DNA from: an uncultured Pseudomonadota bacterium
Lineage (GTDB): Bacteria > BMS3Abin14
Length of the DNA: 42,828 nucleotides
Direction of reading: 5' to 3'
NCBI GenBank assembly: GCA_964454175.1
Contig: CAYVSA010000010.1
Span: forward strand, 1 to 42,828
The translations under genes and the position numbers were made by a program. This document shows positions 76-15,687 of this stretch, one piece after another. Numbering within the stretch: position 1 is the stretch's first letter; every line of letters begins with the position of its first letter. Below the pieces are notes generated by a model that made no database searches, had not been told where the DNA came from, and worked only from the letters and a program-made list of their open reading frames with translations.

Positions 76-161
76 TATGCCTGTGAGTGCAGGTGCCATT
101 AAGATTCTCTTAAATCCCGGCCGGGTTGCTGTCGGGGTGTGGGTTCAGAAAGGGGGAAGTT

Positions 162-1358
162 ATGGGTAGGAAGCTATTGGTATCTTTTCTTGCACTATTG
201 CTTGCGATCGCCGTCGCAGCAGTTGGTCTTGCTGAAAATGAAGTGTTTGAACCTGTGAAGGCACCCTCCCTCGGGCCGGAAGGTGCTCCTGTCACAATAT
301 ACGAGATCGCCGACTTCATGTGACCTTTCTGCAAGGAGGCCGGTCCGACCTTCAAGCGGATAAAAGAAGAGTACAAGGGAAAAGTCAGATTTGTTTTCGT
401 TCCCTACATGAGGTCCTATTCCGAAAATTCGCGGGACACCGCCCTGGCGGCCTTTGCAGCATGGGACCAGGGTAAATTCTGGGAAATGCACGATCTCATT
501 TTCGAGAAAGCGCCCGATATTGACAGGGGGGTACTCGTAGAACTTGCCAGTCAGCTCAGGCTCGATCTGAAAAAATTCACCGCAAGCCTTGATAATAAGG
601 AACACCTGGACGATCTCACCGAAAATCGAAAGCGAGTCAGGGATCTGGATATCTGGAGCACGCCGACGCTCATCATTAACGGCAGGATCCTGAAGGGTGA
701 GCAACCCTTTGAGAAATATAAATCCCTCATTGACGAAGCTCTCGGCTCTCACAGCAGCACCAACCCTGTATGGCGAGCTGTTTCTTCGGTCGCTAGACTT
801 ATTCGGCCGTCGTCGGCTTACGCGTCGGGAGGTGGCGCCTTCGGCGAGGGTAAAGTACCGCTCTTTATCAAGGTCCCGGTCCTGAAACGGGTTAACGACC
901 TCAAAGTGGGCATGAAGGCTCCCGATTTTGAGCTACCCAGCACTCTGGGCCGAAGCATCAGGCTCAGCAGTTACCTGGGCAGAAAGAACGTTCTGTTATC
1001 GTTCATGCCGGCTGCATTTACCCCTGTCTGAACCGGGCAGCTGGCCGCGTACGAAGAGTTACGAGATCGTTTCGCAGCCCTGAACACCCAGGTTCTGGGT
1101 GTATTTGTAAATAACATGCCCACTCTCATGGCCTGGACGCAGGGGATCAACCTGTCCTTTCCAGTTCTCAGTGATTTCTGGCCCCACGGACAGGTTGCTC
1201 TGCTCTACGATGTTCTGAGATCAGAGGGTATTGCCGAAAGAGCTATTTTCGTTATCGACAGGGAGGGCATTATCCGCTACATAGATATCCACGACATTAA
1301 CGAAGACCCCGGGATCAATGCTATTCTGAAAACCCTGGAGGATATAGAGGCCAGGTGA
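162..1358 (+). CDS. Exported DsbA-like thioredoxin-fold / AhpE-like peroxiredoxin fusion selenoprotein, 398 aa, Sec at residues 54 and 290
   Basis: ORFs 126-323, 408-1031 and 1116-1358 share one frame and the gaps are open. ATG 162 follows AGGGGG. Signal peptide MGRKLLVSFLALLLAIAVAAVGLA. TGA 321-323 gives ADFM-U-PFC (CxxC position) with QGKFWEMHDLIF and cis-Pro loop STPTLIING. TGA 1029-1031 gives PAAFTPV-U-TGQL (PxxxTxxC) with APDFEL, LSDFWPHG and ERAIFVID. Confidence 0.88.
328..360 (+). promoter_or_regulatory. Candidate bacterial SECIS hairpin for UGA 321-323
   Basis: TCTGC-AA-GGAGG-C-CGGTCCG-A-CCTTC-AA-GCGGA: stems TCTGC/GCGGA and GGAGG/CCTTC; apical G343,T344 fall at positions 23-24 counting from the U of UGA, as in the E. 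coli fdhF SECIS. Confidence 0.7.
1035..1080 (+). promoter_or_regulatory. Possible weaker SECIS hairpin for UGA 1029-1031
   Basis: GGGC(A)GC 1035-1041 can pair with GC(A)GCCC 1074-1080; inner CGTA/TACG stem with a G-initiated loop at about 1053; folded by eye only. Confidence 0.35.
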
Positions 1359-1478: not shown

Positions 1479-1563
1479 CAGGCGCCTGGCGATTTTCCGC
1501 CGGTTGTTTGGTGTAAATGTGCAAGAGGTTCTAGAGTATTCCTGATGAATGGAGATTCTGCTG

Positions 1564-1986
1564 ATGGCAGGTGATGAGAACAACGACAATAAATTCAGTG
1601 TTGAGGATCGCAGGACATCTACGGTTGGGACCGAGATCGAGAACGGGCTGGAGGACCAAGACAGCCAGATGGAGCCTGAAGCGGACTCCGGGCCTGACGT
1701 ATCGGAAGCAGGTTCGGCCAAATCGGGCAAGTTTCCACCCGTAGATTTTTCAACTTTTCTGTTCTCACTTTTCAGCTCGGCCCTGATCCAGCTTGGAGAG
1801 ATGGCCGATCCTATCACGGGAAAGCAGGAAAAGAGCCTCGAGTCGGCAAGCCAGACGATCCAGCTGTTCTCAATACTGGAGGAAAAAACCAAAGGTAACC
1901 TAACCGAAGAGGAGGAGAAGTTCCTGAAGAACGCTTCAGCAGAACTCAAGTGGAAATACCTCGATGCTGTAAAGGAGAAAGGATAG
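1564..1986 (+). CDS. DUF1844 domain protein
   Basis: DFSTFLFSLFSSALIQLG..DPITGK...ILEEKTKGNLTEEE typical of DUF1844; acidic N-terminal tail; ATG 1564 preceded by GGAG (ORF track starts at 1549). Confidence 0.8.
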   Translation: MAGDENNDNKFSVEDRRTSTVGTEIENGLEDQDSQMEPEADSGPDVSEAGSAKSGKFPPVDFSTFLFSLFSSALIQLGEMADPITGKQEKSLESASQTIQLFSILEEKTKGNLTEEEEKFLKNASAELKWKYLDAVKEKG

Positions 1987-1994
1987 TTCCTGTT

Positions 1995-3959
1995 TTGAGG
2001 GTTCCCTTGGGCCGATTCCTTCTTTCTGTCGCATTCCTGTTTTCCCTTATCCAGCCTGCGCTTGCCGCGGAGGTGAGCGAGGTCACGGTGGATTTCCCTC
2101 TGTCCGAGATTCTCGATATCAAGCCAGCTGGTGCCAAGACGGCTGGTGATGCGATCGCCAGTCAACCGGTCGGTACCGCAAAGCATGCTTCGTGGGAAGA
2201 TGAGTGGTTTGCCTACAGGCAGAAATCCCTGAGGGGCAATAACAAGGGAGCGTCCGAGCATCTTGACAAGGTAAATGCCTACAGGATGAGCGCAGGGATA
2301 CCCAACCTTTTCATCCCTTCTGCCGCCCTCATGTACGAGTCGTCCCAGGCCAGGAGGCAGGGACGGTATGACGACGCCCTCAGACTCGTAAACTATGCAT
2401 CGCTGCTTTCACCCGATGATCCTGCTCCCCACTTTTACAGGGCCAGAACTTTATATAAGCAGAACAAGCTCAGGATCCTTTCTGCTATTGATGCTGTTTT
2501 CGAGGGATGGGTGACTTTTGCCAGGGACTTTCGATCTTCATTCCCGTGGATGGTAGGTTTTGCGGTCTGGATCCTCACCGGAATAATCATTGCCAGCATA
2601 GTATCCATTTTCATTTACACGATCAGAATTATACCCCGCATCTCGCACGATATATCTCATCTGGTCAGGCTCCCCCAGTGGGTGATCAACCTGAGTTTTC
2701 CGCTCCTCATGGCGGTACTGCTCTTTATCTGGCTGCCGTTCATATGGTGGGTTGTAGCTATTGCGTTCATACCATTTTTACACGCCACAGGCCGCGAACG
2801 CGTTGCTCTGTCTGCAGGGTTGATATTTTTGGTGTGCATTCCACTGCTGGTACACGTCATGGCACTCGGAAACAATTTCAACTCCGGATTTAAGGGGATC
2901 TTGCTTTATGACTCAGAGATGTCAGGAGAAGGGCCAGCCGTCATCCGTAAGCTCGAGACTCTGAGGACCCGTTATCCCCGAGACTCTGAAGTCCTGGTCG
3001 CCATGGCTGCTGTGCTGCGCAGAGATGGAAATATTAACGGTGCCCAGGGCTTTTTGAAGAAAGCGGCGATCCTGAACCCTGAGTCCGGAATTATCATTAA
3101 CAATGCTGCCAACCTCTTGTACGCAAAGGGCCAGATACCAGCGGCCATCGATCAGTACAAAAAGGCGCTTCGATACACTGACAATACAATCATCCACTAC
3201 AACCTCAGCCTCGCCCTTCAGGAAAACCTTCAGCTTGAAGAAGGGGGCAGGGAGTTTCAGAAAGCTCAGTCAATGGATCCCGATCTTATCAGCAGGATAA
3301 CAACCAACAGGCCCGATGGAGTAGAGAATATTGTTCGGGACATTTTCCCTGCCCGGAAGACGTTCTTTCTCAGTGCTCTCAAGCTGGACGATCTGGGCAG
3401 GCAGTGGAGGAATACCATGTGGGGCGGTGTAGTGCCCTGGATCTCCTTTGCTGTGGCTTTGATCGGATTCCCCCTCGCTGGAATAATAATGCTGGCGGGA
3501 TACCCGCTGAGTAAAACATTTTTCTCCTCAGGTATATGCCGCAGATGCGGAAAACTTCACTGTGACAGGTGCAGCGAATCAGCCAAGGATGATCTGTGTT
3601 CACAGTGCCGGCAGATATTTTTCGTTAGAACGGGGGTCGACCCCGCGAGCAGGGTCAGAAAGATGATGCAGATAATGCGCTTTAACAAGAGGCGCTCCAT
3701 TACCGCCAGAATACTGACCGTGATACTCCCCGGTTCAGGCCATGCGTTTCTCGGAGAGGGCTTCAAGGCGGTTATCCTGGTCTCTGTATCTGTTGTGTTC
3801 TGGCTCAAGTGGATGCTCTGGTACGGTCTCTACAGGAGTACAACGATACTCGAGATCCAGCCTGGGACATCACTCAGGGTGATCTTCGCTGTTTTCTTTC
3901 TGGTCTACTACATTTTTGTCTTCCGTTCCCTCGGGCAGGTAATGGAGGAGAGGTTGTGA
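1995..3959 (+). CDS. Multi-pass membrane protein with TPR regions and a Cys-rich Zn-binding motif
   Basis: Signal-peptide-like N-terminus ending ALA; TPR-like segments (NNAANLLYAKGQIPAAIDQYKKAL, IHYNLSLAL); several hydrophobic helices; CRRCGKLHCDRC-x8-CSQC. Start uncertain (TTG 1995 chosen; ORF track 1950). Confidence 0.75.
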   Translation: MRVPLGRFLLSVAFLFSLIQPALAAEVSEVTVDFPLSEILDIKPAGAKTAGDAIASQPVGTAKHASWEDEWFAYRQKSLRGNNKGASEHLDKVNAYRMSAGIPNLFIPSAALMYESSQARRQGRYDDALRLVNYASLLSPDDPAPHFYRARTLYKQNKLRILSAIDAVFEGWVTFARDFRSSFPWMVGFAVWILTGIIIASIVSIFIYTIRIIPRISHDISHLVRLPQWVINLSFPLLMAVLLFIWLPFIWWVVAIAFIPFLHATGRERVALSAGLIFLVCIPLLVHVMALGNNFNSGFKGILLYDSEMSGEGPAVIRKLETLRTRYPRDSEVLVAMAAVLRRDGNINGAQGFLKKAAILNPESGIIINNAANLLYAKGQIPAAIDQYKKALRYTDNTIIHYNLSLALQENLQLEEGGREFQKAQSMDPDLISRITTNRPDGVENIVRDIFPARKTFFLSALKLDDLGRQWRNTMWGGVVPWISFAVALIGFPLAGIIMLAGYPLSKTFFSSGICRRCGKLHCDRCSESAKDDLCSQCRQIFFVRTGVDPASRVRKMMQIMRFNKRRSITARILTVILPGSGHAFLGEGFKAVILVSVSVVFWLKWMLWYGLYRSTTILEIQPGTSLRVIFAVFFLVYYIFVFRSLGQVMEERL

Positions 3960-3960
3960 A

Positions 3961-5163
3961 ATGGCTCTAAAGGGGACGCTGAAAGATTTCGGGCTGTCGG
4001 ATATATTCCAGCTCATAGCCCACCAGAGAAAGACCGGTATCCTTTATCTTGAAGATAAGGGCAAGGATGTTGCTGTCACGTTCGAACAGGGGAAAGTCGT
4101 TGGGGCAGAGCCCAGGACTGACAAGACCCAGGAAAAGGAAAAGGTGGGAGAGATCCTCATCAAGTCAGGGATACTGGACAGGGAACAGCTGTCAAGGGCC
4201 CTTGAGGAACAGAACCGCACCATGAAAAAGCTTGGGATCGTGCTGTCTGAGCAAAAGCTCATAACCCCTGAACTGTTCCAGGAGGTCCTTGCATTCCAGG
4301 TGAGAGAGACTCTTTTTAAACTGTTCCAGTGGACCAGCGGCCACTACCGGTTTGATGCTGGTAAAGTTTCCTACGATCTCCAGTTTGTTACCCCGATGTC
4401 AGCTGAGTTCATCCTCATGGAGGCAGCACGTATAATTGATGAGTGGCCCGGTATCAAGCGGAAAATACCCTCCATGGAAACCGTTTTCGCTCCAGTGCGC
4501 GGTGCCGCCGAGAAAATCACGAGAAGGTCCCAGGTTCAGGTAACTGAAGAAGATGATATCGACATTGACATCTTTGGTGAGAGCAGTGCACCCAGGGACT
4601 TTGACGACGACAGGATCCTGCTATCGGATGCTCAGGAGAGGGTTTTTGACAGGGTTGATGGAAAGAAGACAGTTGGCGTGCTCTCATACCAGACCCTTCT
4701 GGGCGATTTCGAGGTTTTAAAAGCCCTGGTGGAACTGACGGGATACGGTCTTGTCAAGGCGGTGTCGACACCAGCTGCAGCGGCGAAGGAGGATGTTCCG
4801 GCAGAGAGGGCCAAAAGAGGGAAAAATGTCTTTGTGATGGCTTCTTCCCTGACGGCCCTGGGAGTGATCCTCATGCTGTCCTTCTTTGCTCTTAGCCTTA
4901 CGAGTACTCGATTCCTGGCCTTTTCTCAGGTTAGCTGGGAAAAAGCAGCTGCTGTTCGAAAGTCTGTCGCATCTGTTCAGAAGAGGCGACTTGAGCTTGC
5001 CATGGAGGTCTACCGTATGGAAAAGGGTTCCTACCCGGCCACGGTCGAAGACCTGTTCAGAGGTGAGTTCGTCCTGTATTCGGATATCTCCTATCCCTAC
5101 GCCCGGCCCTTCAGGATCACGTGGAACGACCGGGGTTTTCTTATCTCGGATCCGAGAGAATAA
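3961..5163 (+). CDS. DUF4388 (PatA_N-like) membrane protein with MshEN-like insert and GspG-like C-terminus
   Basis: MALKGTLKDFGLSDIFQLIAHQRKTGILYL and LFQWTSGHYRF; one TM helix; RLELAMEVYRMEKGSYPATVEDL. Confidence 0.8.
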   Translation: MALKGTLKDFGLSDIFQLIAHQRKTGILYLEDKGKDVAVTFEQGKVVGAEPRTDKTQEKEKVGEILIKSGILDREQLSRALEEQNRTMKKLGIVLSEQKLITPELFQEVLAFQVRETLFKLFQWTSGHYRFDAGKVSYDLQFVTPMSAEFILMEAARIIDEWPGIKRKIPSMETVFAPVRGAAEKITRRSQVQVTEEDDIDIDIFGESSAPRDFDDDRILLSDAQERVFDRVDGKKTVGVLSYQTLLGDFEVLKALVELTGYGLVKAVSTPAAAAKEDVPAERAKRGKNVFVMASSLTALGVILMLSFFALSLTSTRFLAFSQVSWEKAAAVRKSVASVQKRRLELAMEVYRMEKGSYPATVEDLFRGEFVLYSDISYPYARPFRITWNDRGFLISDPRE

Positions 5164-5168
5164 CAGGC

Positions 5169-6113
5169 ATGAAGAAGGCTCTTATTATTGAAAGCGACCA
5201 GCAGGCAATGATCCTTTCTGGCGAAATGGACAAAAATCTCAAGATGATCGAGAAGCTTACCGGTGTCAAGATCGGCATCAGGGGCGAAAAGGTCTTTCTT
5301 GAGGGCCCAGTCGAACAGGTTGGGGAAGTTGAAAGCATTATTGGAGACATCCAGCAGGCGATCAGCGCTGGTCGCCAGATCTCATCAACGGAGGTTGAAA
5401 ACCTTTTTAAACAGCTGGGAAACGGCAGGCGTAACGTCGTTTCTGATCTCCTGATAGAGTCTGTGGTCGTCTCACCCAGAAAATCCATCGTACCCAAGAG
5501 TGTTAACCAGAAGGTTTACCTGGATAGGATCCTCAACAACGATATCGTATTCGGTATTGGCCCGGCCGGGACCGGGAAAACCTATCTTGCCATGGCTGCA
5601 GCAGTAAAGTCCCTGGTTCAGAAAGAGGTTAGCCGGATCATCCTTGCACGGCCCGCCGTTGAAGCAGGAGAGAAGCTGGGTTTCCTGCCAGGGGATATCT
5701 ACGAAAAGGTCAACCCCTACCTCAGACCATTATACGACGCGCTATTCGACATGCTGAGCTCGGAAAAAGCCCTGAAACTCGTTGAGCGCGGTGTGATCGA
5801 AATAGCGCCACTGGCTTTCATGCGCGGCAGGACTTTGAACGACTCCTTCGTGATCCTCGACGAGGCCCAGAATACAACTGCCGATCAGATGAAGATGTTT
5901 CTCACTCGCCTCGGTTTTGATTCAAAGGCTGTGATCACAGGGGATGTGACCCAGGTCGATCTCCCTTCCAGGGGATCTTCCGGACTGATCCAGGTTGTGG
6001 ATATCCTTGAAGGGATAAAAGGGATATCCTTCGTCAACTTCAATGACAGGGATGTTGTGAGACACCCGTTGGTGCAGGAAATAATCAAGGCTTACGAAAA
6101 GCGGGGGATTTGA
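5169..6113 (+). CDS. phoH: PhoH-family ATPase (YbeZ-like)
   Basis: GPAGTGKTYLA, RPAVEAGEKLGFLPGD, FMRGRTL, ILDEAQN, VVRHPLV. Confidence 0.95.
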   Translation: MKKALIIESDQQAMILSGEMDKNLKMIEKLTGVKIGIRGEKVFLEGPVEQVGEVESIIGDIQQAISAGRQISSTEVENLFKQLGNGRRNVVSDLLIESVVVSPRKSIVPKSVNQKVYLDRILNNDIVFGIGPAGTGKTYLAMAAAVKSLVQKEVSRIILARPAVEAGEKLGFLPGDIYEKVNPYLRPLYDALFDMLSSEKALKLVERGVIEIAPLAFMRGRTLNDSFVILDEAQNTTADQMKMFLTRLGFDSKAVITGDVTQVDLPSRGSSGLIQVVDILEGIKGISFVNFNDRDVVRHPLVQEIIKAYEKRGI

Positions 6114-8611
6114 AGTTGTCCAGACCGGCCGCACCGACAGGCCAGGAGAAAGTAAACCTCGGGCTCAAAAAGCCGGGCTGGTTCGCGTCTCTTTTCACCT
6201 GGGATGAGGAAACCCAGTGGTCCGTGCTCTTCTGGATCACTGCGATAGTGATAACTTTTCTCATACTTCCTCCGCGGCAGCTTCAAAGGTGGAACTACGA
6301 GGTCGGTGATATCGCTCACCGTGACATACGGGCTCCTCAGTCATTCCTTGTGGAGGATCCAGCCTCGACCCAGGCCAGAAAGCTCGAAGCAGAGGCCTCC
6401 GTGCTTGCAGTATATGATTTTGACCGCCGCCAGGAGGTGGACATCCTTTCATCTTTCCGGGAGTTTTTCCAGGAAATGAGAGGGCTCCTCATGAGCCTCA
6501 AGGCCCAGGAAATGGTTCTCCTTAAGAACTATAACAAGAGCAAAGGAGAGCAGAGAGTAAAATTAAAACAGGAGCTGGAGCTGTTCAGACAGCAGGCGGA
6601 AAAACAGAGGATCGAACCCACGACCGCCTTTATCCAATCCGTGGCCCTTGAGATAACTTATGAACAGATGACGCCGCTATTTGCTGACGGCTTTTCTGAA
6701 AAAACCGAGTCGATCATGGTCGATTCTTTCCAGCCCATAGTTGGCACCGGGATAGTTTCCAACCAGGAACTTCTTCTCAGGGAAAGAGGAAAGGGGATCA
6801 ATGTAAGGACCCTGGAAGCGGTTGCCGAAGAGATGGTACTTGACGATTTTTCTTCAATTCTATCTCTCGATGCTGCGCGAAGTAAGATAAGGGACGGTAT
6901 AAATTCGGTTCGGTGGACGAGACAGCAGCTTCCCCTTAAAAAGTTCCTTCTCACATTCTCCCTTGACCTGGTGAGGCCTAACCTGACTTTTAACCGCTCG
7001 GAAACCGAAGAACGCCGGAAAAAAGCTGTGGAGGAAACCAGCGCCGTTTATCACAAGGTCAAAAAGGGGCAGATAATCGTAAGGATGGGGGATCCGGTAA
7101 CTGAGAATAATCTCCTTAAGATCCACTCGCTGAACAACATCGCTCCCAGCAAGGGCAGGATAACAAACGTCCTTGGCGCTTTCATTCTGACGGCGCTTAT
7201 TCTCTTTATCTTTTACAGGGTTCTGGTGCTCGTCGTTCCAGAAGTCCAGAAGGATAACTACAGGCTCATTATGCTTGTAGTCGTTATAGTCATGCAGACG
7301 GGCCTCACACGTATCTTCATGATGCTGGCCCAGGCAGTATCCGCTACGAATCCGTCCATCAGTGAAACGGCGCTTCAGCTTGTCGTGCCCTTCGCGGCTG
7401 GTGCAATGCTCACCGGCACCCTTTTCCCTACAGCCGTCGGTGTCCTTGTCGCGGGTGTGAGCTCTATTTTCTCCGGTGTTATAGGCGACTGGAGTCTCAT
7501 GGTCTTTGTTTATTCCTTCGCTGGAGGAATAATTGCAGCTTTTTCGGTGATCAACTGCAGGCAGAGGTCCTCTCTTGTCAGGGCAGGCCTGATGGTGGGA
7601 GCCGTTAATTCGGCTGTCGCAGTAGTCTCCATCCTCAACGGCGGCGAGCTGTTCACTGTTGCCTCCTTCTATCAGGTCCTTTCCGCACTGGGTGGCGGTG
7701 TCGTGGTCTCCCTCATTGTTTCACTGGCACTGCCCATACTGGAAACCGTGTTCGGGGTTGCCACAGACATGAAGCTGATGGAGCTTGCTAATCTTAATCA
7801 GCCTGCTCTAAAGGAGATGATAGTCAGGGCCCCGGGCAGCTACCATCACAGTGTCCTGGTGGGGTCTCTTGCAGAAGCGGCTGCTGAGGAAATTGGCGCA
7901 AACCCTCTTCTGGCAAGGGTTGCTGCTTCCTATCACGATATCGGCAAGGTCAACAAACCCGAGTATTTCGTTGAGAATCAGGAGGACAGGTACAGCCGCC
8001 ACGAGAGACTTACTCCCAATATGAGTGCCTTGATACTGACAGCCCACGTTAAGGACGGTGTCGAGATCGCAAGAGAGGAAAATCTGCCGCGCAGAATAAT
8101 CGACATAATAAGGCAGCATCATGGTACACGGCTGATCACATTCTTTTACAGCAAGGCCAAGGAGATGGAAGACCCGTCGGTGCAGTCGGTGAACGAAAGC
8201 GATTTTCGCTACCATGGGCCGAAGCCTCACAGCAGGGAGGCCGCTATTATCATGCTCGCTGACGCTGTTGAGGCCGCTTCCAAGGTCCTTGCGGATCCGA
8301 CACCCGCCCGCATCCGGGGCCTTGTGCAGAAGATAATCAACGAAATTTTCATAGACGGGCAGTTGGACGAATCAACTTTGACATTGAGAGATCTTCACCA
8401 TCTCGCCAAGAGTTTCACTCACACACTGACAGGAATATTTCACCATCGCATTGACTATCCACAGCGGCCTCTGGCCTCATCGGTGAGAAAGGACAGGAAG
8501 AAAAAGAAAGATAATGGTGCTGTTGCAGAGCAGGATGGCGTTAAAAACGAGCCTCCGGAAGACGCTCGAGGGCCTGGCGCAAAGGATATTAAGCGACTTG
8601 GACAGGCCTGA
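6110..8611 (+). CDS. 7TM-HD (HDIG) membrane phosphohydrolase, PgpH-like
   Basis: Large extracytoplasmic domain, about 7 TM helices, APGSYHHS, YHDIGK, QHHGT, MLADAVEAA, HHRIDYP; typical position between phoH and ybeY. Confidence 0.9.
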   Translation: MKLSRPAAPTGQEKVNLGLKKPGWFASLFTWDEETQWSVLFWITAIVITFLILPPRQLQRWNYEVGDIAHRDIRAPQSFLVEDPASTQARKLEAEASVLAVYDFDRRQEVDILSSFREFFQEMRGLLMSLKAQEMVLLKNYNKSKGEQRVKLKQELELFRQQAEKQRIEPTTAFIQSVALEITYEQMTPLFADGFSEKTESIMVDSFQPIVGTGIVSNQELLLRERGKGINVRTLEAVAEEMVLDDFSSILSLDAARSKIRDGINSVRWTRQQLPLKKFLLTFSLDLVRPNLTFNRSETEERRKKAVEETSAVYHKVKKGQIIVRMGDPVTENNLLKIHSLNNIAPSKGRITNVLGAFILTALILFIFYRVLVLVVPEVQKDNYRLIMLVVVIVMQTGLTRIFMMLAQAVSATNPSISETALQLVVPFAAGAMLTGTLFPTAVGVLVAGVSSIFSGVIGDWSLMVFVYSFAGGIIAAFSVINCRQRSSLVRAGLMVGAVNSAVAVVSILNGGELFTVASFYQVLSALGGGVVVSLIVSLALPILETVFGVATDMKLMELANLNQPALKEMIVRAPGSYHHSVLVGSLAEAAAEEIGANPLLARVAASYHDIGKVNKPEYFVENQEDRYSRHERLTPNMSALILTAHVKDGVEIAREENLPRRIIDIIRQHHGTRLITFFYSKAKEMEDPSVQSVNESDFRYHGPKPHSREAAIIMLADAVEAASKVLADPTPARIRGLVQKIINEIFIDGQLDESTLTLRDLHHLAKSFTHTLTGIFHHRIDYPQRPLASSVRKDRKKKKDNGAVAEQDGVKNEPPEDARGPGAKDIKRLGQA

Positions 8612-8948
8612 GGCCGAACTGAGTATCCTGGTGACAGACGATCGGGAGATAGAGGGGCTCAACCGAAATTACAGGAACCGCGGCCGACCGACCGACGTCC
8701 TCGCTTTTCCCCAGACACAGGTAAGTCCGGAGCAGAAGAGTTCCGGTCCCACTCTGCTTGGCGATGTGGTCATCTCACTTCAGAGAGCTGAAGCTCAGGC
8801 TCTGGAGCAGGGAGTACCTCTGGAATCCGAGATGCGAAGGCTGCTTGCTCACGGGGTCCTGCATCTCCTTGGTTTTGACCACGAAATTTCCATTGAGAAT
8901 GCAGGGGACATGAGAAAACTTGAAGATAAATATGCGGAATTGGAATAA
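8514..8948 (+). CDS. ybeY: rRNA maturation RNase YbeY
   Basis: LNRNYR..RPTDVLAF, LGDVVIS, HGVLHLLGFDH. Confidence 0.95.
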   Translation: MVLLQSRMALKTSLRKTLEGLAQRILSDLDRPEAELSILVTDDREIEGLNRNYRNRGRPTDVLAFPQTQVSPEQKSSGPTLLGDVVISLQRAEAQALEQGVPLESEMRRLLAHGVLHLLGFDHEISIENAGDMRKLEDKYAELE

Positions 8949-8950
8949 TA

Positions 8951-9065
8951 GACATTGGACATTAGGCGGCAGTTAACATTTGTCAGTAGTCAGGGGTCAG
9001 TGGTCAGTAACCAGAAACCAGAAGCTCCAATTGACCTTGGCCTCTGGATCTTGGCCTTTGGTTTT
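8951..9065. repeat. Heptamer tandem arrays, partly complementary arms
   Basis: GACATTG GACATTA (8951-8964); GTCAGTA GTCAGGG GTCAGTG GTCAGTA ACCAGAA ACCAGAA (8982-9023); TGGCCTC TGGATCT TGGCCTT TGGTTTT (9038-9065). Confidence 0.8.
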
Positions 9066-9110
9066 GAAAATCAGATCATGAATATTTAATGGAGGAATCT
9101 GGAACCTGAT

Positions 9111-9941
9111 ATGTCGCATTCATTGATACAATGGTTGAAAACTCTTATCAGAAACTTCACAAGAGGTCATGTGACCGAAGAGGATATCCAGAGCCTTATC
9201 GATGTGGGGGAGCAGGAAGGCGTGATCGACAGGGATGAGCATGCGATGATAGATGCCGTCCTCGATCTTGGGGACACGAAGGTGCGTGAAGTACAGGTTC
9301 CCAGGACAGAAATGGTTGCTCTTGATAAAGACAGCTCCCTGGAGGGCGCACTGGATACCATTATTCAGGCCGGGCACAGCAGGATCCCTGTTTTTGATGG
9401 TGATATAGACAATATCATCGGGATCCTTTACGCAAAGGACCTCCTGAAATCGTGGGGCTGTACACCACAGGAGATCGACCTTACGAAGGTGCTGCGTAAA
9501 GCATTTTTCGTTCCTGAAAGCAAGGCGGTCAATGATCTGCTCAAGGAGTTCAAAACGAAACGGGTCCACATGGCGGTAGTGGTCGATGAGTATGGGGGTA
9601 CTTCGGGTCTTGTCACCATCGAGGATATTCTGGAGGAAATAGTCGGAGACATTCAGGACGAGTACGACCCTGAAGACGAAGCATCTATAAAAACACTGGA
9701 TGACGGCAGCCATATGTTTGATGCGCGTTGTACTCTGGACGACTTCGGGGAGGAGACGGGGGTGGTGCTGGAGAGGGGTGATTACGATACGCTGGGAGGC
9801 TTCATTACCAGGGTCCTGGGGCACGTGCCGGCGACGGGAGAAGCCTTCTCATATCATGGGCTTGAGTTCGAAATAGAAGATGCGGATGCTCGCCGGGTTA
9901 CCAAGATCCGCGTCAGGAAGTCCGAAGACGGAGCAGCTTAG
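9111..9941 (+). CDS. corC: CorC/HlyC-family CBS-domain protein
   Basis: GHSRIPVF, GILYAKDLL, HMAVVVDEYGGTSGLVTIEDILEEIVGDIQDEYD, YDTLGG; upstream of lnt. Confidence 0.88.
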   Translation: MSHSLIQWLKTLIRNFTRGHVTEEDIQSLIDVGEQEGVIDRDEHAMIDAVLDLGDTKVREVQVPRTEMVALDKDSSLEGALDTIIQAGHSRIPVFDGDIDNIIGILYAKDLLKSWGCTPQEIDLTKVLRKAFFVPESKAVNDLLKEFKTKRVHMAVVVDEYGGTSGLVTIEDILEEIVGDIQDEYDPEDEASIKTLDDGSHMFDARCTLDDFGEETGVVLERGDYDTLGGFITRVLGHVPATGEAFSYHGLEFEIEDADARRVTKIRVRKSEDGAA

Positions 9942-9944
9942 GTC

Positions 9945-11453
9945 ATGCTTAACGGCGCTCTGCTGAGGGCCCTGGCGACCTCTTTTTTCCTGATACTTGC
10001 TTTTCCCAGGCCTGACATCGGGGCCATTTCCCTGGTAGCTTTGATCCCACTGCTCGCAGCAGTAGAGGGAAAAACCGGGCTTAAGGCTTTTTCCACCGGT
10101 TGGATGGCCGGTTTTGTCTGGTTCTTCTTCTCCCTCAACTGGATTGCCGGGACCTTGAGGGAGTTTGGCAGCATTCCATTCCCGCTCAACCAGCTGGTGA
10201 TCGCCCTCCTGTGTACGATCCTTGCACTTTACACTGGTATTTTTTCTCTTCTGGTAGCCTCTTTGGGGAGGGTTTCCCCCTGGAGTGTCCTGCTGTATCC
10301 ATCCTTATGGGTAGCAATTGAATATTTCCGAGCCTCGGTTCCCGTACCGTTCCCGTGGCTGCTGCTGGGCTCGGCGTTCTGGAAAATGCACTTCGCTTCC
10401 GGGCTTTTTGCATTGGTCGGGGTTTATGGCGTCTCCTTCGCCGTAGTTGCCGTAAATACACTGTTATTTTGTTCTTACCGTGAATTAATGGGCCGAAGGC
10501 CAGGGAGTGCCTCGAGGTGGCTTGCGGCGGCAGTGGGTGTTTCTACTGCCCTGTTATTCATTTCCTCGGCGGCGGGCAGGAGTCAGGATGGCACCAGGAT
10601 AACTGTCGCGGTAGTTCAGGGCAACTATGCTCAGGAGATCAAGTGGGAGGAGTCATACCGTGAAGAGGTGATCTCCAGCTATCTTTCCCTTACCAGGCAG
10701 GCCGTATCCGAGGGGGCTGAGCTGGTTGTGTGGCCCGAGACCGCAATGCCGTTTTACTACCAGGTGGAGCCTGAAATAGCCGAGCGCCTGAAAAATATGG
10801 TACGGCAGGAGAAGATTCATCTGGTTTTTGGCAGCCCGGCTTTTAACATAAATGGAAGTGACCTTTTTTTGTACAACCGTGCATACCATATTTCACCAGA
10901 GGGGGTAGAAGAATATTACGACAAGATCAAGCTTGTTCCATTCGGTGAATATGTACCGTTTAAAGCATTGATACCCTTCGTGGAAAGGATTGTTCCAGGA
11001 GTTGGGGATTACGCGAAAGGGCAGTGGACCGCCCCGTTCAGTACCCCTGTCAGGTCCGGGGCCCTGATCTGCTACGAGATCTCCATCCCTGGTCTGACAA
11101 GGCGGGAGGCAGCCGACGGGGCGAGGATGATACTGAACCTCACAAATGACGCCTGGTTCGGGACATCCTGGGGGCCTTATCAGCACCTTGCCATGACAGC
11201 CTTGAGGGCCGCTGAGAACAGGGTTCCGGTCGTAAGGGCAGCCAATACGGGTATCTCCGCAGTATTTGACCGCAGCGGCAGAAAAGTCGACGAGATCGGT
11301 CTGTTTCGTAAGGGGTATATTGTGACCGCCGTTGAGGCCGGATCAGGGCCGAGCATATATACGAAATTTGGGAACATGATTGTCTATCTGTCTGTAATTG
11401 TGATAATATTCAGCGTTTCAAAATACCTTTTAAAAAGGTTTAGGCAGCCATAA
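9945..11453 (+). CDS. lnt: Apolipoprotein N-acyltransferase
   Basis: TM-rich N-half, VQGN, WPETA, YDKIKLVPFGEYVP, LICYE, TNDAWFG, RAANTGIS. Confidence 0.95.
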   Translation: MLNGALLRALATSFFLILAFPRPDIGAISLVALIPLLAAVEGKTGLKAFSTGWMAGFVWFFFSLNWIAGTLREFGSIPFPLNQLVIALLCTILALYTGIFSLLVASLGRVSPWSVLLYPSLWVAIEYFRASVPVPFPWLLLGSAFWKMHFASGLFALVGVYGVSFAVVAVNTLLFCSYRELMGRRPGSASRWLAAAVGVSTALLFISSAAGRSQDGTRITVAVVQGNYAQEIKWEESYREEVISSYLSLTRQAVSEGAELVVWPETAMPFYYQVEPEIAERLKNMVRQEKIHLVFGSPAFNINGSDLFLYNRAYHISPEGVEEYYDKIKLVPFGEYVPFKALIPFVERIVPGVGDYAKGQWTAPFSTPVRSGALICYEISIPGLTRREAADGARMILNLTNDAWFGTSWGPYQHLAMTALRAAENRVPVVRAANTGISAVFDRSGRKVDEIGLFRKGYIVTAVEAGSGPSIYTKFGNMIVYLSVIVIIFSVSKYLLKRFRQP

Positions 11454-11477
11454 ATATTGATCACCGGAGGAAAGAAG

Positions 11478-12603
11478 ATGGACAACCTCGATCAGTTCGT
11501 ACAAGCATTGTCCGAAGCCGATAAAAAGCTGAAAACCCTCTGGAGGCATCTTTGACCCGGACGGAAAAACAAAGCAGATCAAGGAACTTGAAAAAGCCGC
11601 CTCTGAGGCCGATTTCTGGAACGATCATGAAAATGCCCAGTCCAAAACCCGGGAACTGGCACGGTTAAAGAGTGACGTAAATACTTTCCAGAAGATACAG
11701 GACATGATTTCTGATCTCGAAGCAGCCGTAGAGCTCCTCGAGGAGGCCGACAGCAGGGAGGGACAAGACCTTCTTGCAGAATCCGTGTCTCAGTTGACGG
11801 CAATGGAGAGTGCCCTTTCACAACTGGAGCTTCAGTCCCTCCTCGGGGACGAGGCAGACCCAAAGAATGCCATAATTTCCATAAATCCCGGAGCAGGGGG
11901 AGTAGAGTCGCAGGACTGGGCACAGACTCTTCTGAGAATGTACCTGCGCTGGGCTGAACGCAGAGGGTACCAGACGGAGATGCTGGATCATCAGCCTGCA
12001 GAGGAAGCTGGTATAAAGAGCGCCACCTTTGCAGTTGAGGGTGATTATGCTTACGGCTACCTCAAAGCGGAAAGCGGGGTGCACCGGCTGGTCCGCATTT
12101 CACCCTACGATGCCAGCAGCCGCAGGCACACATCCTTCGCCTCTTTGTTCGCGTATCCTGAAGTGGACGAAGACATTGATCTCGAGATCGAGGAAAAAGA
12201 TCTTCGTGTCGATACTTTCCGATCCAGCGGTGCTGGAGGGCAGCATGTGAACGTGACCGATTCTGCGGTGCGCATCACTCACCTTCCCACCGGAATAGTC
12301 GTTACCTGCCAGAACGAGAGATCTCAGCACAAGAACAGGGCAACGGCAATGCGTATATTAAGAGCAAGGATCTACGAACAGCGCAAACGGGAAAAGATGG
12401 AAGAGATAGCCAATACCCAACCTGAGAAAAAGAATATCGCCTGGGGCAGCCAGATACGCAGCTACGTTCTCCATCCATACAGGATGGTCAAAGACCACAG
12501 AACAGGATGTGAGACGGGCAACGTTGACGCGGTGTTAGACGGCGATCTGGATAGGTTCATACAGGCCTTTTTGCTGGGTGAGGGCTTAGAAGATGGCTCA
12601 TGA
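11478..12603 (+). CDS. prfB: Peptide chain release factor 2 (programmed +1 frameshift)
   Basis: ATG 11478, 25 codons to CTT TGA C (11550-11556), continues in +1 frame DPDGK...DFWND into ORF 11704-12603; GAGGQHVN, SPY anticodon-mimic region, WGSQIRSY. Confidence 0.96.
11542..11556 (+). promoter_or_regulatory. RF2 autoregulatory frameshift site
   Basis: GGAGG-CAT-CTT-TGA-C: internal Shine-Dalgarno 3 nt before the slippery CTT TGA C. Confidence 0.95.
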
Positions 12604-13687
12604 TGACGACAGGTTCATGGCAAGGGCGCTGAGGCTGGCTGCCCGGGGACGCGGTACCACGCATCCTAATCCTATGGTGGGTGCGGTAGTTGTAAAGAGT
12701 GGACAGGTGGTTGGTGAGGGCTGGCACTCCCGTCCGGGGGAAAAGCATGCCGAAGACGCGGCACTGGCTGCCGCAGGGCCGGCTGCCGCAGGATCCACCC
12801 TCTACGTCAACCTCGAGCCATGCTGCCACCATGGCAAAACTCCTCCGTGCACGGAGGCGATATTAAAAGCTGGTGTGAAAAGAGTTGTAATCGGGTGCAC
12901 TGACAGGGACACCAGGGTTGCCGGCAAAGGTGAGGCCGCTCTGAGAGAGTCGGGGGTGGCTGTATTTACTGGTGTGGCCGAAAAAAAAGCGAAGGAACTT
13001 AACAGGGCCTACCTGCATTATGCGGCCACTGACAGCCCTTACGTCACCCTGAAACTTGCAGTAACCCTCGATGGCAGAATAGCGACATCTTCTGGTCAAT
13101 CGAAATGGATAACCGGTCGGGAGTCGAGGAAACAGGCTCACCTTCTCAGGGGCGTTGTGGACGGAGTTCTAACCGGTGTCGGCACCGTGTTGGCCGACGA
13201 CCCGCTTCTCACGGCGAGAGCGCCCGGTGTAAAAGTGCAGCCTGAAAGGATCATCCTCGACCCTGCCCTCAGGACCCCGGTCGATGCCAGGCTTGTGGAT
13301 GAAGCCGTCGACGGCAAAACAGTCCTGGTGGTTGGAAAATCAGTTCCTGAGTCCAGGATGGCGCCCTATCTCGACAGCGGTGTCAGGTTTCTCAAACTTT
13401 CCACAAGGCAGGGAACATTCTCCTGGAACGATCTCAGGAGCGGTCTTGTCAGCGAGAACGTTATACATCTGCTCGTGGAGGGAGGCTCCTTCACGGCAGC
13501 GTGGTTCATAAGGGAAGGTGCAGTGAGCAGGGTAGAGCTTTACTATGCTCCCAGCCTCCTTGGATCAGACTCCCTTCCGGCTGTGGGTGAGTTGCTGGTC
13601 GATGACCTTCGGCATGCCCCCAGGTTTGATATGGTGAGCTGCAGGCGGACCGGAAGCGATCTTCACATGATCCTTGATGTTCTCTGA
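12593..13687 (+). CDS. ribD: Riboflavin biosynthesis deaminase/reductase RibD
   Basis: PNPMVGAV, HAE, LEPCCHHGKTPPC, TLDGRIAT, LLVEGG. Confidence 0.96.
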   Translation: MAHDDDRFMARALRLAARGRGTTHPNPMVGAVVVKSGQVVGEGWHSRPGEKHAEDAALAAAGPAAAGSTLYVNLEPCCHHGKTPPCTEAILKAGVKRVVIGCTDRDTRVAGKGEAALRESGVAVFTGVAEKKAKELNRAYLHYAATDSPYVTLKLAVTLDGRIATSSGQSKWITGRESRKQAHLLRGVVDGVLTGVGTVLADDPLLTARAPGVKVQPERIILDPALRTPVDARLVDEAVDGKTVLVVGKSVPESRMAPYLDSGVRFLKLSTRQGTFSWNDLRSGLVSENVIHLLVEGGSFTAAWFIREGAVSRVELYYAPSLLGSDSLPAVGELLVDDLRHAPRFDMVSCRRTGSDLHMILDVL

Positions 13688-13713
13688 TTGACGCTGTTGT
13701 TGATCAATATCTG

Positions 13714-13755
13714 CCTGGGACCTGGGTCATGGGACCAGGGACACAGATTCAGGAC
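13714..13755. repeat. Heptamer tandem array
   Basis: CCTGGGA CCTGGGT CATGGGA CCAGGGA followed by degenerate units CACAGAT TCAGGAC. Confidence 0.7.
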
Positions 13756-13817
13756 GCGAGAAAAGCAAATGGAAAAGAAAATGATTATATTTATCGGGCA
13801 GGGACACGGATAGAAGG

Positions 13818-14474
13818 ATGTTTACCGGCATAGTCGAAGAAGTCGGGAAGATCGGAGCCTCCAGGCGCGTTGACGGAGGTGTGCGTCTGGACATTACTGC
13901 TGACAAGGTCTTGCAGGGCACTGATCCCGGTGACAGCATTGCGGTTGATGGTGTTTGCCTCACGGTAGAAAGCCTCACGCTTAGTTCGTTTTCGTGCTTC
14001 GTTTCTCTGGAGACGCTTGAAGTGACGACTCTGGATGGGTTGTCAGGAGGCCGTGATGTGAACCTGGAGAGGGCCCTCGCTGTCGGGGACAGAGTTGGCG
14101 GCCACCTTATGCCCGGTCACGTGGAGGCGGTAGGGACTGTGAAGTCGATCCATTCTTCCGGAGACGGTCACAGGTTTGACATTTCCTTTCCCGATGATTT
14201 CGCAAAGTATGTCGTCAAAAAGGGGTCTGTTGCGATTGACGGCATAAGCCTGACGGTTTCGGGGCACTCCGGGATGAGTTTCAGTGTCGCGATCGTCCCG
14301 AAAACTCTCGAGAACACCACCTTGCGATTGAAAAGGAGTGGTGATTCTGTTAATTTGGAACCCGACCTGGTGCTTAAATACGTCAGGTCCTCCATGCTCT
14401 CTCTTGCCCAGGACGAAGAGAGTGGGGATATCACCATGGAAAAACTCATAAAGTCGGGGTTTATCTCCGATTAG
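13818..14474 (+). CDS. ribE: Riboflavin synthase (alpha chain)
   Basis: [40 protein letters not shown] (named ribC in E. coli). Confidence 0.95.
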
Positions 14475-14484
14475 GGAGGCAGTG

Positions 14485-15687
14485 ATGTCTGTTTCATGCA
14501 TCGAGAGCGCTCTCGAAGACCTTCGGGAGGGCAAAGTCATAATCCTCGTCGACGATGAAGATCGTGAGAACGAGGGAGATTTCATGGTCGCTGCCGAAAA
14601 GGCGACTCCCGAGATCGTTAATTTCATGGCGCTTCACGGGCGCGGCCTTATCTGTCTTTCACTTACAGAAGAAAAGTGCGAGGCACTTTCGCTGCCCCAG
14701 ATGGTAAACGATAACAGGACCAAGTACGGCACCGCCTTTACGGTATCGGTTGAAGCAAGAAAGGGAGTTACTACGGGGATATCGGCGGCGGACCGTGCAA
14801 CTACGATCCTCACAGCCATAGAGGATGGGTGCGGCCCGGACGATCTTGTAAGACCCGGCCATGTCTTCCCCATCCGGGCGCGTAAGGGAGGGGTCCTCGT
14901 CAGAGCTGGTCAGACGGAGGGTTCTGTTGATCTGGCCAGGGCAGCAGGGTTAAAGCCAGCCGGTGTGATCTGCGAGATCATGAATGAGGATGGTTCCATG
15001 GCCCGGATGCCGCAGCTGAAGGAGGTAGCCGACAGGTTCGGCCTCCGGATAGTTTCGATCGCGGATGTGGTCGAATACAGGATGAAACATGAACGGCTCA
15101 TTGAAAGGGTCGCCACGACGGTGCTCCCGACCAGGTACGGCCTTTTTTCCGCAGCGGCATATAGAAACGGGATCGACGGTCAGGAGCACATGGCTCTCGT
15201 GTTGGGAGAGATCCACAAGGATGTGCCAGCAATGGTCAGGGTCCACTCCGAATGCATCACGGGAGACGTCTTTCACTCACATCGCTGCGATTGCGGCGAA
15301 CAGATGGAGTGTTCCCTGAAAATGATCCAGGAGCAGGGCAGCGGGGTGTTCCTTTACATGGGCCAGGAAGGACGCGGTATAGGCCTTGCCAACAAGCTGA
15401 GGGCATACCAACTCCAGGATGAGGGCAGGGACACCGTTGAAGCTAATCTGGAACTGGGTTTCGCACCGGACCTGAGGGACTATGGAATTGGTGCCCAGAT
15501 ACTGGTTGACCTCGGGGTAGGAATGATACGGCTCTTGACCAATAACCCCAAAAAGATAGTCGGTCTTGAGGGGTACGGTCTGTCCGTTGTCGAGAGAGTC
15601 CCCATTGAGGTTGAAGCAAGGAAGGAAAATATCAGATACCTCAAGACCAAGAAGGACAAGATGGGCCACCTGCTGGGTAAAGTTTGA
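14485..15687 (+). CDS. ribBA: Bifunctional DHBP synthase / GTP cyclohydrolase II
   Basis: [54 protein letters not shown] 14485 fits GGAGG spacing. Confidence 0.96.

Follow-up and report, generated by a model that had tools for sequence, protein, structure and literature searches.

One conserved gene with two in-frame TGA codons predicts an exported double selenoprotein of DsbA-like and peroxiredoxin domains

Do two TGA codons inside a long reading frame mark a split or decayed gene, or do they encode selenocysteine (Sec, one-letter code U) in an intact exported enzyme? The question arises at positions 162-1358 of the forward strand of a 42,828-nucleotide stretch (the window) from an uncultured Pseudomonadota bacterium of the GTDB lineage BMS3Abin14 (contig CAYVSA010000010.1), where an initial annotation proposed a fusion of a DsbA-like domain with an AhpE-like peroxiredoxin (Prx). 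Translation agrees with the frame as proposed: it comprises 398 codons and a terminal TGA, and its internal stops are exactly two, both TGA, at codon 54 (321-323, site 1) and codon 290 (1029-1031, site 2), which align to the catalytic Cys residues of homologs. C57 is the sole Cys of the 398-residue fusion and the Prx domain lacks a resolving Cys, also as claimed; the computed mass is ~44.5 kDa for the precursor and 42.1 kDa minus the signal peptide. Sequence comparisons indicate that a single conserved gene, which gene callers split, encodes an exported double selenoprotein.

162..1358, + strand: whole gene, 398 amino acids, two in-frame TGA codons read as Sec (translation and conservation)
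151..156, + strand: ribosome-binding site AGGGGG (a G-rich site lies ahead of the start in 11/11 complete orthologs)
162..233, + strand: N-terminal Sec-pathway signal peptide, residues 1-24 (heuristic, from hydrophobicity and motif)
1356..1358, + strand: true stop codon TGA (orthologs terminate here with TAA, TAG or TGA)

The open reading frame listing breaks the gene into fragments at 408-1031 (207 amino acids) and 1116-1358 (80 amino acids), the fate foreseen for it, and a protein collection stores the 207-residue piece from this contig as P0142. A database protein with Trp at both Sec sites (P0002) is an annotation artefact. The read-through protein matches the Pfam families Thioredoxin_4/DSBA at residues 35-192 (E 9e-25) and AhpC-TSA at residues 249-374 (E 1.5e-35), and no NCBIfam model scores over its cut-off, the best being NF041057 (98.2 vs. 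190). Its N terminus is signal-like by a heuristic judgement of hydrophobicity and motif, in line with the export first proposed: the best 11-residue Kyte-Doolittle mean is 3.1, a basic n-region and hydrophobic core are present in 11/11 complete orthologs, and cleavage probably falls after G-L-A.

Among 16 genomes of the phylum (all of one family, several incomplete), 12 carry the fusion, eleven as full-length copies with two TGA codons and one truncated where its contig stops. It was not found in G004, G006 (77% complete) or G015 (71% complete), and G011, which retains selA, holds a remnant at the syntenic locus (L035:1498-1780) that is mostly deleted and has a premature TAA. In 45 genomes of other families, only single-domain matches occur among the matches listed. 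TGA occupies site 1 in 11/11 and site 2 in 12/12 genomes spanning them, and the terminal stop is TGA in 3, TAA in 4 and TAG in 5 of the 12 orthologs; both internal codons being invariant while the terminal stop varies is more than chance would give. Among 15 metagenome loci, near-duplicates included, TGA is found in all 10 that cover site 1 (L140 left out owing to a frameshift) and all 9 that cover site 2. Eight further loci, from the scan of named genomes, duplicate sequences already counted.

Relaxed selection past the UGA codons, which the initial annotation named as grounds for abandoning its reading, is not seen. The ratio of nonsynonymous to synonymous differences (pN/pS, uncorrected, pS being close to saturation) stands at 0.25 ahead of U54, 0.27 within the DsbA domain, 0.37 across residues 216-289 and 0.21 beyond U290, compared with 0.88 in linker residues 195-215. 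A pseudogene or sequencing error was rejected on the strength of conservation and purifying selection. A code in which TGA means Trp was likewise rejected, since 3/12 terminal stops are TGA, catalytic Cys residues occupy the aligned positions in homologs, and a tRNA-Sec(UCA) is present.

The window's genome (2.17 Mb in 135 contigs, 98.5% complete by markers) also holds the machinery for Sec insertion. Of the four genes proposed for a search, tRNA-Sec(UCA)/selC, selB and selD score over cut-off, and selA appears as a tail of 40 residues where a contig ends, next to selB; a full selA is found in 12/15 relatives. The selD gene (L018, G000 C134) carries its own in-frame TGA followed by a GGA-loop hairpin and is preceded by a YedF/SirA-like gene (by eye). 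In most relatives the fusion gene is flanked by a divergent mazG-like gene (by eye) on one side and a DUF1844-TPR-DUF4388-phoH cluster on the other, and the conserved neighbours include no gene for a redox partner. Together, these comparisons indicate that the fusion is a real double selenoprotein and is vertically inherited.

If both UGA codons encode Sec, in what kind of domain does each residue sit? The features of the N-terminal half are as follows.

264..737, + strand: class II DsbA-like (BdbD-like) domain, residues 35-192 (Pfam PF13462/PF01323; PDB sequence match BdbD 3eu3)
321..332, + strand: U54-P-F-C57 redox motif with TGA at 321-323 (TGA in 11/11 genomes; Cys in P0010, P0360, P0392)
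335..353, + strand: Sec insertion sequence (SECIS) 1, a stem of 8 pairs whose GUC loop lies 19 nt past the UGA (consensus model; frozen synonymous sites)
663..665, + strand: P168 of the S-T-P cis-proline loop (invariant; aligns to BdbD 'ATPT')

This domain scores 88 bits with PF13462 and 55 bits with PF01323, both above cut-off, and its best PDB sequence match is Bacillus subtilis BdbD (3eu3, E 1.7e-19). It has the hallmarks of class II DsbA-like proteins, namely a thioredoxin fold with a helical insertion, a [C/U]xxC motif and a cis-Pro loop, in which P168 would adopt the cis form typical of the family. Codons 56-64, just past the first UGA, are synonymously frozen (best 11-codon window identity 0.92 vs. 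a median of 0.49 for 330 windows). The SECIS 1 stem is 95.8% paired over 18 sequences (8/500 shuffles as high; also seen with 11 sequences), and two of its pairs change on both sides among orthologs; the window's genome has one mismatch. With our own implementation of the bacterial SECIS (bSECIS) consensus model in the accessible text of PMC13188914, a match is found at site 1 in 16/16 sequences vs. 69/204 control codons. When sequences were folded singly, neither UGA reached a significant z-score. A diverged homolog (L148:1241-1753) carries U-I-F-C and a SECIS-like stem in which pairs have changed; its TAA soon after the signal peptide reflects an error or a pseudogene.

The second Sec residue lies in a domain of the AhpE type.

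840..863, + strand: FGxGxVPL start of the Prx N-terminal extension (invariant; matches the F-x-G-K-I-Y-like segment of standalone relatives)
906..1352, + strand: AhpE-like 1-Cys-type Prx domain, residues 249-397, cysteine-free (PF00578; AhpE top sequence and structure matches)
1008..1031, + strand: P283-x-x-x-T287-x-x-U290 peroxidatic motif with TGA at 1029-1031 (TGA in 12/12; Cys in 119/119 standalone full-motif matches)
1045..1077, + strand: SECIS 2 candidate, a nonconsensus bulged long hairpin, weak in the window's genome (pairing statistics)
1239..1241, + strand: R360, conserved catalytic Arg past the second TGA (invariant; aligns to the AhpE Arg)

P283, T287, U290 and R360 are invariant in orthologs, giving the AhpE-like motif and its Arg. 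Mycobacterium tuberculosis AhpE (PDB 1xxu, 1xvw, 4x0x) supplies the top sequence matches (E 1e-27) and shares PxxxTxx[C/U], the catalytic Arg, an LSDFWPHG segment and the lack of a resolving Cys; the fusion differs in having Sec for the peroxidatic Cys, in its predicted export, and in being joined to a DsbA-like domain. An AlphaFold model from a 94-row alignment covers both domains with a predicted local distance difference test (pLDDT) of 89.6 and a predicted template modeling score (pTM) of 0.82, and its top ten Foldseek matches are all AhpE chains (TM 0.84-0.88 by target, 38% identity). A model from a 12-row alignment is poor (pLDDT 59.7, pTM 0.49). The window's GVFVNN segment, flagged at first as a possible sign of decay, does not indicate it: orthologs mostly have GVLTDN, N replaces D in 3/12, and standalone relatives are of GITVDN type.

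Pairing in the SECIS 2 candidate, which spans +17 to +49 after the UGA, reaches 86.7% of cells, a level attained by 13/500 shuffles. The single-sequence z-score at site 2 is 0.19 in the window's genome, and RNAalifold gives a weak consensus structure that differs from the bulged hairpin. Some bSECIS elements fail the consensus model, according to the accessible text of PMC13188914. A second hidden selenoprotein, a small Prx with a signal-like N terminus and T-[P/S]-A-U, occurs at L167-L171 (G002, G009, G001, G010, G012) and was not found in the window's genome; its mature part is cysteine-free, and a long hairpin begins at about +18 after the UGA, an offset like that of the fusion's site 2 (5/7 regions matched in the long-hairpin comparison of TxxU Prx genes).

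Homologs replace Sec with Cys at both sites, an alternation that had been anticipated. In three database proteins (P0010, P0360 and P0392), site 1 reads C-P-F-C and the sequence stops at T-P-V, directly before site 2; their DsbA domains group with the fusion clade with a Shimodaira-Hasegawa-like approximate likelihood ratio test (SH-aLRT) support of 99, in a quick, unrooted tree of 21 rows with 9 candidates skipped and a long-branch warning. At site 2, 119/120 top Prx matches have Cys in the full motif, and the remaining one is the contig's own fragment. Of these 119 standalone proteins, 113 have a single Cys in the domain and 113 a signal-like N terminus. The nearest standalone Prx proteins, being mostly single-Cys and apparently exported, therefore need an outside resolver. 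Furthermore, two Cys/Cys fusions, P0009 (assigned by name to a Myxococcales bacterium) and P0389, match this domain order and also start with a signal peptide. Both of their domains branch away from the fusion clade in unrooted trees, so a separate fusion event is likely, and the seemingly separate origin of fusions with the same domain types argues for a functional pairing of the two domains. The profile search of representatives was dominated by multi-DsbA repeat proteins and newly contributed P0299, P0360 and P0389 only.

How would the paired domains work? We somewhat favor an antioxidant relay, U290 to U54 to C57, that serves as a peroxidase module of the cell envelope, with the UxxC domain most likely recycling the seleno-Prx. 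By analogy with the family, U290 would reduce H2O2 or an organic peroxide after export and become a selenenic acid, and U54 would attack the oxidized U290 to form a mixed Se-Se bond, taking the resolving role because the Prx domain has no resolving Cys. C57 would resolve this bond, restoring U290 and leaving a U54-C57 selenenylsulfide. In most carriers of the fusion, the donor that then reduces the oxidized UxxC would not be a recognisable DsbD/CcdA; sulfide, thiols of the periplasm or a membrane carrier not yet recognised would take this part. Electrons could follow this route inside a single chain or from one cut half to the other. AhpE itself is recycled by mycoredoxin/mycothiol or H2S (PMC8113037, accessible text).

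Four points weigh against the relay. No DsbD/CcdA is detectable in 7/12 carriers, among them the window's genome (two hidden Markov models and tblastn, in an assembly with gaps) and the single-contig, 100%-complete G001; DsbD-family models match 5/12 carriers. BdbD, the nearest solved relative of the N-terminal domain, is an oxidase. At site 2 the bSECIS consensus is found in 4/17 sequences, the window's genome being among those that fail, vs. 69/204 controls. Finally, electron transfer between the domains is something we infer, and the shallow model has a pTM of 0.49.

The envelope of these bacteria offers some guidance on electron supply. The exported set of the window's genome includes several TlpA/ResA-like CxxC proteins (L054, L055; G000 C83, C68, C89, C21, C90), some fused to or adjoining multiheme cytochromes, which suggests a reducing envelope; in a genome where DsbD/CcdA went undetected, they may be a sign of an electron carrier not yet recognised. 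Among exported-like proteins with Cys (n = 104, heuristic gene and signal calls), the fraction with an even Cys number is 0.41 vs. 0.32 expected, and several two-Cys members are CxxC redox proteins. This weak bias, together with TlpA-like proteins that need a reductant, favors an unrecognised donor over a busy disulfide-forming pathway. The "self-contained" peroxidase of the initial annotation thus stands in part: the protein is predicted to be exported with both Sec domains in one frame, but it needs an electron source in a genome with no detectable DsbD/CcdA, DsbB or canonical VKOR, and its linker keeps a signal-peptidase-like site at which the halves may separate.

Peroxide could instead drive disulfide formation, the Prx oxidizing the DsbA-like domain and the latter oxidizing exported proteins in place of DsbB/VKOR. 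In favor of this idea, DsbB is found in 0/16 genomes of the phylum, VKOR is not found in the window's genome and has 4/16 atypical matches elsewhere in the phylum, seemingly without the loop Cys pair, 7/12 carriers have no DsbD-family match, and the nearest N-domain structure is BdbD. A precedent is Prdx4, which oxidizes PDI in the endoplasmic reticulum (PMC12781119, accessible text). However, the even-Cys bias is small, and heme-copper oxidase-like genes occur in just 2/16 genomes (the window's genome, which also has cytochrome bd-like domains, is one), so that peroxide supply is probably episodic, as would befit a mostly anaerobic lineage meeting oxygen at times. Selenenylsulfides are more stable than disulfides and hence weaker oxidants, which also counts against peroxide-driven oxidation, and on balance we think it unlikely. 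The VKOR matches (L156-L159) are ~470-residue membrane proteins with only a C-terminal CxxC and a patchy distribution in the phylum; in 3/4 loci they lie downstream of an NAD-dependent epimerase-like gene, and they are not beside DsbA. An apparent VKOR-fusion anticorrelation (VKOR in 3/4 genomes without the fusion and 1/12 with it) was dropped, given that the matches are atypical and seemingly lack the loop cysteines.

Whether the antioxidant relay runs in one chain or two turns on the linker.

765..803, + strand: amphipathic linker helix, residues 202-214 (helical in the 12-row and the 94-row AlphaFold model; hydrophobic moment)
807..824, + strand: P-S-S-A-Y-A, residues 216-221, a signal-peptidase-I-like c-region (conservation; register of the standalone Prx signal site)

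Residues 195-215 vary freely, and just beyond them P216 is kept in 12/12, A219 in 11/12 and A221 in 12/12 genomes. Among 27 distinct linkers (one duplicate dropped, ten sequences without anchors skipped), 26 have P-x-x-[A/V]-x-A 3-5 residues ahead of FGxG despite upstream insertions of up to ~70 residues; the 27th, P0010, has P-x-A-x-A, as do P0360 and P0392 by eye. The background of the motif is 0.0008 per position, and it occurs at 13/149 signal-like N termini of the window's genome vs. 1.8 expected. The F-x-G-K-I-Y-like segment of standalone relatives sits just past their signal peptide, which ends in the same register as the linker motif, with A, G or S there in 55/62 that have F-x-G (58/120 gave no regular-expression match). 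Substrates of signal peptidase I have small residues at -3/-1, a Pro near -6 and no Pro at +1; 26/27 linkers show this pattern, and a signal peptidase I gene is present. The 11 residues ahead of the motif are amphipathic (mean hydropathy 1.1, range 0.1-2.3; mean moment 0.49; 26 linkers) and fall short of an h-region, for which N-terminal signals average ~3.1. In the 94-row model, residues 202-214 are helical and residues 220-233 have low confidence. An internal start making a separately exported Prx was rejected: the linkers of the window and 4 other orthologs have no in-frame ATG/GTG/TTG, and the rest share no position.

A pure relic would decay like the neighbouring residues, and P0009/P0389 lack the motif; we infer that selection preserved the peptidase site of the Prx's ancestral signal peptide while its export role was lost. 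The linker helix probably attaches to the inner membrane at its outer face, and the motif itself may have a structural or membrane-binding function. Cleavage by signal peptidase I after A221 is a tentative hypothesis suggested by the motif and its register; computed products are 22.5 and 19.6 kDa. More tentatively still, the gene would encode a bacterial polyprotein that is exported once and cut internally by signal peptidase I at the amphipathic helix and P-x-x-A-x-A, leaving a helix-tethered 22.5-kDa Sec-DsbA-like protein and a 19.6-kDa Sec-Prx that would jointly pass electrons to peroxide in an envelope without recognisable DsbB or DsbD. One gene may in this way yield two selenoenzymes after export. 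Among bacteria, the Bradyrhizobium FbcH precursor provides a precedent, though its internal signal is a true one. The Pestivirus Erns/E1 junction likewise has an internal signal peptidase site behind an amphipathic rather than transmembrane helix (PMC3937272, accessible text), and with its eukaryotic endoplasmic reticulum peptidase, far longer helix and downstream transmembrane anchor it is an analogy only. The works found report no bacterial internal amphipathic signal-peptidase site, most subscription papers and supplements lying outside the search.

If the polyprotein is cut, its products might also be independent enzymes, the fusion being a co-expression device that sets stoichiometry and makes the Prx dependent on selenium. 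Sulfide or other thiols would then recycle the Prx, as H2S does AhpE in the accessible text of PMC8113037, and the DsbA-like half would serve its own substrates. The retention of P-x-x-A-x-A in the ancestral signal-site register, the tolerance of long upstream insertions and the low model confidence at residues 220-233 would all fit such a device. We give it a low probability: the Cys/Cys fusions P0009 and P0389 have Pro-rich linkers (by eye) without the motif, which suggests that the pairing itself is useful, and a pTM of 0.82 suggests a defined domain arrangement. Least credible is a real stop at one or both TGA codons (a pseudogene or split genes, most plausibly at the second), for which the site 2 signals above (few bSECIS matches, a negligible z-score and a weak RNAalifold structure) speak and against which stand the absence of TAA or TAG at site 2 in any of 12 genomes and 9 metagenome loci, the gene's lowest pN/pS downstream of it, the lack of conservation of M319, the only possible restart, the large deletion and TAA of the truly decayed G011 copy, similar long hairpins in other TxxU Prx genes of the phylum, and the failure of some bSECIS elements under the model (PMC13188914, accessible text), so that we regard it as very improbable.

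A relay between exported redox domains has its closest known counterpart in the ScsB-TlpA-PprX system of Caulobacter, in which an exported Prx is recycled by an exported thioredoxin-fold protein (PMC3322552, accessible text). In contrast to the fusion, the Prx of this system (PprX, a BCP/PrxQ) has a resolving Cys, and the Caulobacter parts are separate, Cys-based and fed by ScsB/DsbD, which was not found in the window's genome. The Cys/Cys fusions P0009 and P0389 and the Prx-glutaredoxin hybrids (Haemophilus influenzae 1NM3; P0031, P0041) also join a Prx to a thioredoxin-fold redox domain; P0009/P0389 differ in lacking Sec and the amphipathic-helix/AxA linker.

Each half resembles a known selenoprotein type. 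The bacterial Sec-Prx family (PF00578, TxxU; prototype PrxU of Eubacterium acidaminophilum) shares PxxxTxxU and is listed in the accessible text of PMC13188914 with one Sec and one domain, and the NCBIfam PrxU model (NF040737) scores the fusion at 54.5 vs. a cut-off of 270. The DsbA-like form 1 and DsbG-like families (NF041057, the Rcas_1661 family of selenolipoproteins) and BdbD share a class II DsbA fold, with UxxC and a T-P cis-Pro loop; as far as the accessible descriptions go, those families are single-domain with one Sec, and the fusion, below the NF041057 cut-off as given above, has no DsbB/BdbC partner that we found. Table 1 of PMC13188914 (2026) inventories 119 prokaryotic selenoprotein families, including TxxU Prx, UxxC DsbA/DsbG-like and several double selenoproteins, and no DsbA-Prx fusion is among them; PMC2398784 and PMC1794560, in their accessible text, describe other fusions only. 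We found no report of a double-Sec DsbA-Prx fusion within the same reach of the literature. The supposition that the fusion had not been described therefore holds for the double-Sec form, which is new to the 2026 inventory as far as that table goes; the architecture is not unique, given the Cys/Cys fusions.

Around the gene, consensus matches alone mark a sigma-70-like promoter with an extended -10 upstream (46-75) and a weak terminator-like hairpin downstream (1486-1503). Positions 1549-15687 hold a conserved cluster of ordinary genes: DUF1844, TPR, DUF4388, phoH, a 7TM-HD hydrolase, ybeY, a corC-like gene, lnt, a release factor, ribD, riboflavin synthase (of the lumazine-binding type) and ribBA. 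Rfam and ARAGORN found nothing within the window.

Together, our results describe a predicted double selenoprotein that is conserved across the phylum and was missed by annotation, the databases holding fragments or Trp at both sites (P0142, P0002). Its second UGA exemplifies a Sec codon that no consensus SECIS follows. With two Sec sites of different catalytic function in a single exported chain, it would lend itself naturally to testing a Se-to-Se relay. The fusion also raises the question of whether signal peptidase in bacteria cuts at an internal amphipathic helix and so gives two proteins per gene, and of how electrons are supplied to or accepted from the envelope in bacteria without recognisable DsbB or DsbD.

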